A DNA stretch of 64,000 nt from Escherichia coli 042 (GTDB lineage Bacteria; Pseudomonadota; Gammaproteobacteria; Enterobacterales; Enterobacteriaceae): assembly GCF_000027125.1 (NCBI RefSeq), contig NC_017626.1. The stretch is one strand, 5' to 3'. Under the pieces are notes generated by a model, which was not told the origin of the DNA, did no database searches, and saw only the letters and a program-made list of their open reading frames with translations. Shown here piece after piece: positions 34,284-36,248 of this stretch (position 1 is its first letter; the number at the start of each line of letters is the position of its first letter). The translations under genes were made by a program, and so were the position numbers.

Positions 34284-36248
34284 TCAGGCGGCGGTGTTCG
34301 CCATACGTTGTTCGCGGTTTATCGCCTGCAAGGCGGAGACATCAACAATCAGTGCCACGCTGCCGTCGCCAAGAATGGTCGCAGCAGAAATGCCGGGGAC
34401 TTTGCGATAGTTACTTTCAAGGTTTTTAACCACAACCTGGTGTTGACCAATTAATTGATCCACCAGCAAGGCGTAGCGGCGACCGCCACTTTGTAAGATC
34501 ACCACAATTCCCTGGGTGGCTTCGGTTTTCGCGCCCGCGACGTTGAACACTTTCCACAGTTCGACGATGGGCAGATATTCACCCCGCACTTCCAGCACCC
34601 GCTCGCCGCCTGCCAGTGGATGCAGATCGGCTTCACGGGGTTGCAGTGATTCCATAACAGCATTCAGCGGCAGTATGAAAACTTCATCCGCAACGCGTAC
34701 GGACATGCCGTCGAGGATGGCCAGCGTCAGCGGCAGTAAAATGCGGATCGTAGTGCCAGTACCCTGCTTCGACTGGATTTCGACATGACCGCCCATCTCC
34801 TGGATATTACGTTTAACGACGTCCATGCCAACGCCGCGCCCGGAGACGTCGGTGACCTGCTCCGCCGTGGAGAAGCCAGGGGCAAATATCAGCATCGCGA
34901 CTTCGTCGTCGCTCATGTTTTCGCTGACGGTCAAACCTTGCGAGGCCGCTTTTGCCAGAATTCGCTCACGGTTTAGCCCCGCCCCATCGTCGGTCACTTC
35001 AATGCAAATGTTGCCGCCCTGATGTTCGGCAGACAGAATTAAATTTCCGACGCTGTTTTTACCTGCGGCGAGCCGTTTTTCTGGCAGTTCAATACCGTGA
35101 TCGAGGCTATTGCGTACCAGGTGGGTCAGCGGGTCGATAATGCGTTCAATCAGGCTCTTGTCGAGTTCAGTGGAACTGCCCACCAGCGTCAGTTCTACCT
35201 GCTTGCCGAGTTTTCCCGCCAGATCACGCACCAGCCGGGGATAGCGACTAAAGACATATTCCATCGGCATCATGCGAATCGACATCACTGATTCCTGCAA
35301 ATCACGAGCGTTACGTTGTAACTGCCCCATGCTGGTAATCAAATCACCATGATTAACCGGGTCCAGTTCACTGGAGCGCTGGGCAAGCATGGACTGGGTG
35401 ATGACCAGCTCGCCGACGAGGTTAATTAATTGATCAACCTTTTCTACCGCTACACGGATGCTGGTGGATTCACTACTGCGCGTCGTTTTTTCCCGCTCCA
35501 CGCGACCGGTTGGCGCTTGTTCGGCTGCTAGTTTAAGCACTGGTGGGGTGGATATTTTGGGCGAGACTTCTACTGTTTCAAAGGTAATCTGATCGGCTTC
35601 AATCACAAAACAAAGTACCGCTGTGATGTCATCTTCGGCGATGTCGCCCGGTAATATTGCCGAGAGAGAATCCGCCCCTTTCACCACGTCAGTTAACGTT
35701 GTCAGATGACCCAGCTCTTCTTCCAGCAGGTCGACTTCCCCGGCCTTCAGACGCGAAAGGATAATTCGTCGCGGCGACTGACTGCGGCTCTGCTCATCTT
35801 GCGGTTCACTTTTGGCAACCACACTTAATCGGGTCACTGCGGATGGCGTTTCGCCTTTCGCTTCTAATGCCAGTTGACGCAAGGCCTGGCAGATATAATC
35901 GAAGCTGGCGGCATCCGGCTCTTGCGACTGTTTATAAGCGTCGAGCTGTTCTTGCATGATGTCCTTCGTTTCCAAAAACAGATTGATAATGTCGGTGTTG
36001 AGTTGCATCTCACCTCGTCTGGCTTCGTCGAGCAGGTTTTCCATCAGATGTGTGGTTTCCTGCAAAACGCTGAAGCCAAAAGTTCCTGCCCCTCCTTTGA
36101 TCGAGTGGGCAGCCCGAAAGATGGCATTCAATTGTTCGGCATCTGGCGCTTCCGGCTGCAAAACCAGCAGATGCTGCTCCATATCAGCCAACAGTTCGTC
36201 CGCTTCATCAAAAAATGTCTGATAAAAATCGCTTATATCCATGCTCAC
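34284..36248 (-). CDS. cheA: chemotaxis histidine kinase CheA (long form; internal CheA-S start at 35957)
   Basis: 654 aa from a GTG start ([20 protein letters not shown]); in-frame Met-98 ([10 protein letters not shown]) corresponds to the short form. Confidence 0.93.

Follow-up and report, generated by a model that had tools for sequence, protein, structure and literature searches.

The window, meaning the whole 64,000-nucleotide stretch of DNA that was analyzed, carries cheA on the minus strand. The gene is a 654-codon frame that runs from a GTG at 36248-36246 to a TGA at 34286-34284, as read in the sequence and in translation, and it opens with the codons GTG AGC ATG GAT ATA AGC. The gene and the codon for its phosphorylated histidine are placed as follows.

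34284..36248, minus strand: coding sequence of CheA-long, 654 aa plus the TGA stop (sequence, translation, PGAP and K-12 annotation, Pfam, PDB 6s1k_A)
36105..36107, minus strand: His48 codon CAC, autophosphorylation site of the P1/Hpt domain, in the long form only (translation NAIFRAAH48SIKGG, Pfam Hpt)

Pfam analysis of the protein located Hpt (PF01627, residues 8-100, E = 1.6e-19), the CheY-binding domain (PF09078, 161-223), H-kinase_dim (PF02895, 261-324), HATPase_c (PF02518, 372-508) and the CheW-like domain (PF01584, 514-640), all five of which exceed the curated cut-offs. The P1-P5 order of the class II five-domain CheA histidine kinases is complete, and the phosphorylatable His48 is present in the Hpt domain, as belongs to the P1/Hpt domain of CheA. 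The protein aligns over residues 1-654 with chain A of PDB 6s1k, the 654-residue E. coli CheA. Of 5426 complete E. coli genomes, 5380 match the region at 95-99% identity, with motB, cheA and cheW as the features beneath these matches. The collinear genomes have the gene order flhDC-motAB-cheAW-tar-tap-cheRBYZ-flhBAE, with cheA exactly at 34284-36248. Open reading frames and collinear annotation together place the window gene in the motAB-cheAW operon context with receptor and che genes adjoining. The window gene is the ordinary E. coli chemotaxis kinase gene cheA.

The RefSeq annotation of K-12 MG1655 contains two coding sequences for cheA (b1888). The long one (YP_010283911.1, 1965 nt, 654 aa) aligns to the GTG at window 36248 and the short one (NP_416402.2, 1674 nt, 557 aa) aligns to an ATG at window 35957. 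Window and K-12 cheA differ at 32 of 1965 positions (98.4% identity), and the substitution pattern looks natural, with 30 synonymous changes and 2 missense changes (N259S and K484E). The alignment is free of differences in the 60 nt before the GTG and codons 1-21 (-60 to +65), and again in codons 75-153. The K-12 gene has the same operon context, GTG start, ATG at codon 98, Shine-Dalgarno (SD) sequences and 654- and 557-aa products as the window gene; the 32 substitutions lie away from the starts and none bears on the tandem arrangement. Two parts of the window (34200-36400 and 36000-60000) were compared with the 5426 complete E. coli RefSeq genomes and were 98.9-99.0% identical to the best of them and 98.3-98.4% identical to K-12. 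An identity of only about 98.9-99.0% to the best genome suggests that the collection holds no very close relative of the window's Escherichia/Shigella lineage.

The GTG start of CheA-long

On the minus strand, window positions 36259-36240 read GAGGTGA-cagc-GTG-AGC-ATG, and motB ends at 36253 according to the open reading frame list and collinear annotation.

36253..36259, minus strand: SD sequence GAGGTGA of the GTG start, with a 4-nt spacer, which holds the motB stop TGA at 36255-36253 (sequence, duplex energy, conservation)

SD strength was scored for each candidate start as the energy of the duplex that the 16S 3' end (CACCUCCUUA) forms with its positions -18 to -4. The GTG start scored -10.2 kcal/mol against the anti-SD, a value reached by only 6% of the annotated starts in the window (median -6.0 kcal/mol) and by 0 of 282 internal in-frame ATGs from 31 neighboring genes. 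The sequence-only reading had held that the 654-aa protein requires initiation at GTG 36248 and had proposed inspecting the ribosome-binding sequences upstream of both starts. GAGGTGA 4 nt upstream of the GTG bears this out, and PGAP, K-12 b1888 and the full-length alignment of 6s1k_A all have the same start. PGAP places the cheA start of E. coli N3 and GTEN_23 at the same GTG and annotates only the long form in these genomes.

Conservation was followed in 80 Enterobacterales cheA loci taken from one scan of species-representative genomes, with 62-96% protein identity. The arrangement GAGGTGA-N4-GTG-AGY-ATG is kept in 74 of the 80 species. The codon-1 SD itself is conserved in 79 of 80, with a median of -10.1 kcal/mol and 99% of the species scoring -5 or better. 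The 4-nt spacer between the SD and the GTG varies freely and codon 2 changes only synonymously between AGC and AGT, which is the pattern expected when coding begins at the GTG. The motB stop TGA sits within the SD and is followed by a 4-nt spacer, an arrangement typical of translational coupling; the overlap thus probably couples cheA translation to that of motB.

Initiation at the ATG of codon 3 (36242-36240) would give a 652-aa long form from the commoner start codon. GAGGTGA lies 10 nt from this ATG (13 nt measured from GAGG), which is too far, but 4 nt (7 nt) from the GTG. The conserved GTG-AGY, the synonymous-only change at codon 2 and the free adjacent spacer also point to the GTG, which is used by all annotations checked and by the 654-residue PDB construct. 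The codon-3 start is very unlikely in this genome and was rejected for it. The codon-3 ATG gains some support from six Photorhabdus/Xenorhabdus loci (L076-L081, alignment positions 1501-1509; one related metagenome-assembled genome included) that have GTA at codon 1 followed by ACN-ATG. GTA is not a start codon, so the long-form start must be shifted in these loci to an ATG or another start, and comparison of the aligned loci suggests that it is probably the ATG at E. coli codon 3. The SD is 10-15 nt from this ATG in the GTA loci.

Starts farther upstream were also considered and rejected. The longest mechanical open reading frame begins at TTG 36302 and would encode 672 aa, but its extension lies inside motB, which is read in another frame. 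Nor is the extension conserved: in 52 of the 80 species the stretch from codon 1 back to the nearest upstream stop contains no alternative in-frame start. TTG 36302 and GTG 36287 both have a weak or badly spaced SD.

The internal ATG at codon 98

The cheA frame contains an ATG at 35957-35955, codon 98, from which it remains open to the common stop.

34284..35957, minus strand: nested coding sequence of CheA-short, 557 aa plus stop, from ATG 35957-35955 (sequence, K-12 NP_416402.2, literature, ATG98 in 82/82 sequences)
35962..35966, minus strand: SD-like AAGGA, 4 nt before ATG98, within Lys95 AAG and Asp96 GAC, in Escherichia and a few other genera (sequence, duplex energy, conservation)

The position that the sequence-only reading gave for this codon and its peptide MQEQLDAYK are exact in both sequence and translation. 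Its further claim, that codon 98 corresponds to a short isoform without the P1 phosphorylation site, agrees with the 557-aa K-12 coding sequence, which has the same start. The His48 codon (36107-36105) lies upstream of ATG98, so the 557-aa product is without the phosphorylation site. Ribosome-binding determinants are found before codon 98. The sequence-only reading would have been contradicted by the lack of an SD-like sequence there, and AAGGA is present. Its duplex energy of -5.4 kcal/mol is within the range of the annotated starts and close to their median. An energy this favorable is also reached by 10% of the 282 internal in-frame ATGs; cheA has 18 internal ATGs, and at this rate about 2 such sites are expected in the gene by chance. 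An ATG with an SD at codon 98 is by itself no better than the chance expectation. The comparative signal and the literature lift codon 98 above chance.

These figures bear on the possibility that ATG98 with its AAGGA is a chance internal Met and the 654-aa protein the only product in this strain. The unremarkable SD and the roughly 2 equally good sites expected in cheA are what such a coincidence would look like. Against it, the start region is base-identical to that of K-12, and the K-12 short form is both annotated and documented by experiment. All 80 species keep ATG98, and synonymous constraint within the gene peaks exactly there. Coincidence is extremely improbable on this evidence.

The SD check cannot single out codon 98, since its SD is average and the ATG at codon 81 (36008-36006) scores higher. 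ATG81 is directly preceded by GAGGTGAG (36016-36009) and its SD score, -6.8 to -9.1 kcal/mol according to the spacing permitted, beats that of codon 98; Met81 is also present in 76 of 80 species. The spacing is short, however, with GAGG 4 nt and the full SD match 1 nt from the ATG. Codons 79 and 80, on which this SD rests, show free synonymous variation (entropy 1.48 and 1.00), and codon 81 is not ATG in four species. The short form annotated in K-12 has 557 aa and not the 574 aa that ATG81 would give, and published work puts the start at codon 98, where the M98L substitution abolishes CheAS (PMC7696710). ATG81 was rejected as the short start on its spacing, the lack of conservation of its SD at synonymous sites and the literature, and there is hardly any likelihood left that the short isoform begins there. 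The choice of codon 98 over codon 81 rests on literature and conservation and not on SD strength, because the SD at codon 98 is average.

Sequence constraint around codon 98 in Enterobacterales

ATG98 is invariant in 82 of 82 sequences, an amino acid result that is biased at Met98 by the use of ETKDIMQE as one of the six search patterns. About 15 loci with ETKDIMQD or EAKDIMQQ were recovered through other patterns and also retain Met98. The AAGGA itself is not conserved. Codon 95 is AAA in 76 of 80 species and codon 96 is GAT in most; the species median of the SD energy at this start is -3.3 kcal/mol, and only 5% of the species score -5 or better. The presence of an SD is thus a weak test of this start, as most related species are without this SD yet keep ATG98.

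The synonymous sites around ATG98 behave differently from the AAGGA. Codons 84-101 are the least diverse part of the gene.

35946..35999, minus strand: codons 84-101, lowest synonymous-site diversity in the gene, A/U-rich (…AACCUGUUUUUGGAAACNAAAGAUAUUAUGCAGGAACAG), about -42 to +12 of ATG98 (80 species)

Among amino-acid-conserved codons, every one of the ten lowest 9-codon windows of synonymous diversity begins within codons 84-93; next in rank comes a cluster at codons 1-2, the other start. With correction for the amino acid encoded, the 12 lowest 15-codon windows begin at codons 79-90. The lowest observed value was -0.48, whereas permutations averaged -0.25 (sd 0.05), which gives P = 0.0002. 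Invariant or nearly invariant codons include Phe91 TTT (80/80), Glu93 GAA (80/80), Asn89 AAC (77/80) and Leu90 CTG (76/80). The constraint is concentrated in an A/U-rich interval, about -30 to +12 relative to ATG98, whose length approximates the footprint of an initiating ribosome. At the DNA level the search patterns are degenerate, and most of the constrained codons fall outside them, so the constraint did not arise from the way the loci were gathered.

An inverted repeat in the same interval brackets the codon-98 start.

35973..35981, minus strand: 5' arm CUGUUUUUG, codons 90-92, flanking the codon-98 SD and ATG (minimum-free-energy hairpin)
35946..35954, minus strand: 3' arm CAAGAACAG, codons 99-101 (minimum-free-energy hairpin)

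Kofoid and Parkinson reportedly noted inverted repeats flanking both cheA starts in 1991 and proposed a regulatory mRNA structure. The minimum-free-energy fold pairs CUGUUUUUG with CAAGAACAG in a 9-bp stem that leaves the SD and ATG98 in the loop. The hairpin energy of -8.4 kcal/mol for 51 nt is not significant against shuffled sequences (z = -0.69). In a set of 77 distinct sequences the arms have 96% paired cells and one stem pair varies among U-A, U-G and C-G; this set showed no two-sided compensatory changes and no measure above the shuffle control. RNAalifold found no consensus structure in the codon-98 region. Folds around the GTG start were not better than shuffles (z = +0.2 and +1.4), a repeat scan around the GTG found no convincing flanking repeat, and an Rfam search found no RNA family inside cheA. 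The 9-bp repeat is conserved but does not covary, and the codon-98 hairpin may or may not form. Covariation counting, RNAalifold and fold energies lent no support to a structured RNA element at the short start.

The position and extent of the constraint suggest that codons 84-101, approximately, form a conserved internal translation-initiation region. The constrained A/U-rich region, and not the AAGGA of Escherichia, would then be the ancestral determinant of internal initiation. We tentatively propose a broader reading that is somewhat less likely to be right than wrong. Codon-98 initiation would be order-wide in Enterobacterales and would work mainly through an SD-independent A/U-rich …AACCUGUUUUUGGAAACNAAAGAUAUUAUG… together with the flanking inverted repeat, the AAGGA being a lineage-specific addition. 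If this is true, cheA would offer a clean natural model of SD-independent initiation at a site within a coding sequence. A search by SD alone would overlook the codon-98 start in most enteric species, because the conserved signal is A/U-rich synonymous constraint and not an SD, and this bears on the computational finding of internal starts.

Translation of the cheA message and neighboring features

The GTG start and the codon-98 start have been known since 1980-1991 and both are annotated in the reference genome. Kofoid and Parkinson are said to have located both starts in 1991 by direct N-terminal sequencing. More recent papers describe two alternative initiation codons, with an endogenous ribosome-binding site driving CheAS (PMC2716512), and initiation of CheAS at ATG-98, with loss of CheAS in the M98L mutant (PMC7696710). 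PMC7696710 refers to Smith and Parkinson 1980 and Kofoid and Parkinson 1991 for the tandem starts, and also to Sanatinia et al. 1995. Production of both forms is reported for K-12 derivatives (PMC7696710, PMC2716512). CheA-short begins after the first 97 residues, has no phosphorylation site and binds CheZ (PMC8563088, PMC1447658, PMC3676780); CheAS is not essential for chemotaxis, and CheZ localizes to the receptor array through CheAS (PMC7696710). The supplements of a Salmonella riboproteogenomics paper do not mention cheA.

A short form made from its own transcript, with a promoter inside cheA, would not call for internal initiation on the operon mRNA. Nothing positive was found for such a promoter, and the synonymous constraint before codon 98 could in principle be a DNA-level signal. 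No sigma-70-like site was found in 35700-36400, and a sigma-28 consensus scan found no site between the two cheA starts. The same sigma-28 scan recovered the tar site (33673-33647, perfect) and the motA site (38258-38232, 2 mismatches). A separate transcript is not indicated, since neither type of promoter lies between the starts, and the scan result agrees with the tandem translation starts on one message described in the literature (PMC2716512, PMC1447658, PMC8563088). A separate transcript is accordingly a most improbable source of the short form.

A single cheA mRNA from the motA-motB-cheA-cheW operon is almost certainly translated from two in-frame starts to give a long and a short product. 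Ribosomes would initiate at GTG 36248 through the very strong GAGGTGA SD to make the 654-aa CheA-long, whose P1/Hpt domain with His48 would equip it as the signaling kinase described in the literature. Ribosomes that initiate internally at ATG 35957, a use of codon 98 known from the papers, would make the 557-aa CheA-short, which is predicted to be unable to autophosphorylate without His48. According to the literature, CheA-short can dimerize, and it tethers the phosphatase CheZ at the receptor array and stimulates it. What was observed directly for this gene is its sequence, frame, domains and SD sequences, its identity to K-12 at the starts, the conservation of ATG98 and the constraint peak. 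The actual use of codon 98 and the role of CheA-short would carry over from papers on K-12 derivatives rather than on this strain.

The E. coli infB gene (IF2 alpha/beta) follows the same principle, with one mRNA and one frame, two in-frame starts and a truncated second product. The infB product is unrelated to CheA and the likeness is an analogy of mechanism only. The two genes are cited together as examples of N-terminal proteoforms, and cheA(L)/cheA(S) is a standard example in recent proteoform papers (PMC11005335, PMC12350097). The analysis adds nothing new on E. coli chemotaxis biology. It serves as a useful positive control for annotation, as a sequence-only reading correctly identified both a non-ATG start and a nested isoform, CheA-short, that is documented but left out by most automatic annotation. 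Only the lineage-specific character of the codon-98 SD and the order-wide synonymous constraint around it are mildly new, and the work of McNamara and Wolfe (1997) may already imply the constraint.

Several other features of the window were recorded. Only 20 nt (atgagtaaaaaggtaacaat), with an SD-like AAAGG, lie between the cheA stop (TGA, 34286-34284) and the cheW ATG (34263), a gap that fits the reported translational coupling of cheA and cheW (PMC2716512). The perfect sigma-28 consensus upstream of tar, TAAAGTTT-N11-GCCGATAA, occupies 33647-33673 on the minus strand. The 2-mismatch site upstream of motA, at 38232-38258 (minus strand), falls within the 3' end of flhC, and K-12 annotation has the MotR small RNA at this position. 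The 768-bp IS1H insertion found upstream of flhD in K-12 MG1655 is absent from the window. Its K-12 flanks join at window 39419-39426 with an 8-bp overlap, consistent with an IS1 target-site duplication. As IS1H is absent and the flanks are contiguous, the flhDC regulatory region is uninterrupted in this strain. Rfam matches in the window are C0465 RNA at 33663-33740 (plus strand), in the cheW-tar intergenic region and antisense to the tar promoter region, MicL sRNA at 20097-20404 (minus strand), within or adjoining cutC, and three clustered tRNA genes at 51955-52254 (minus strand).
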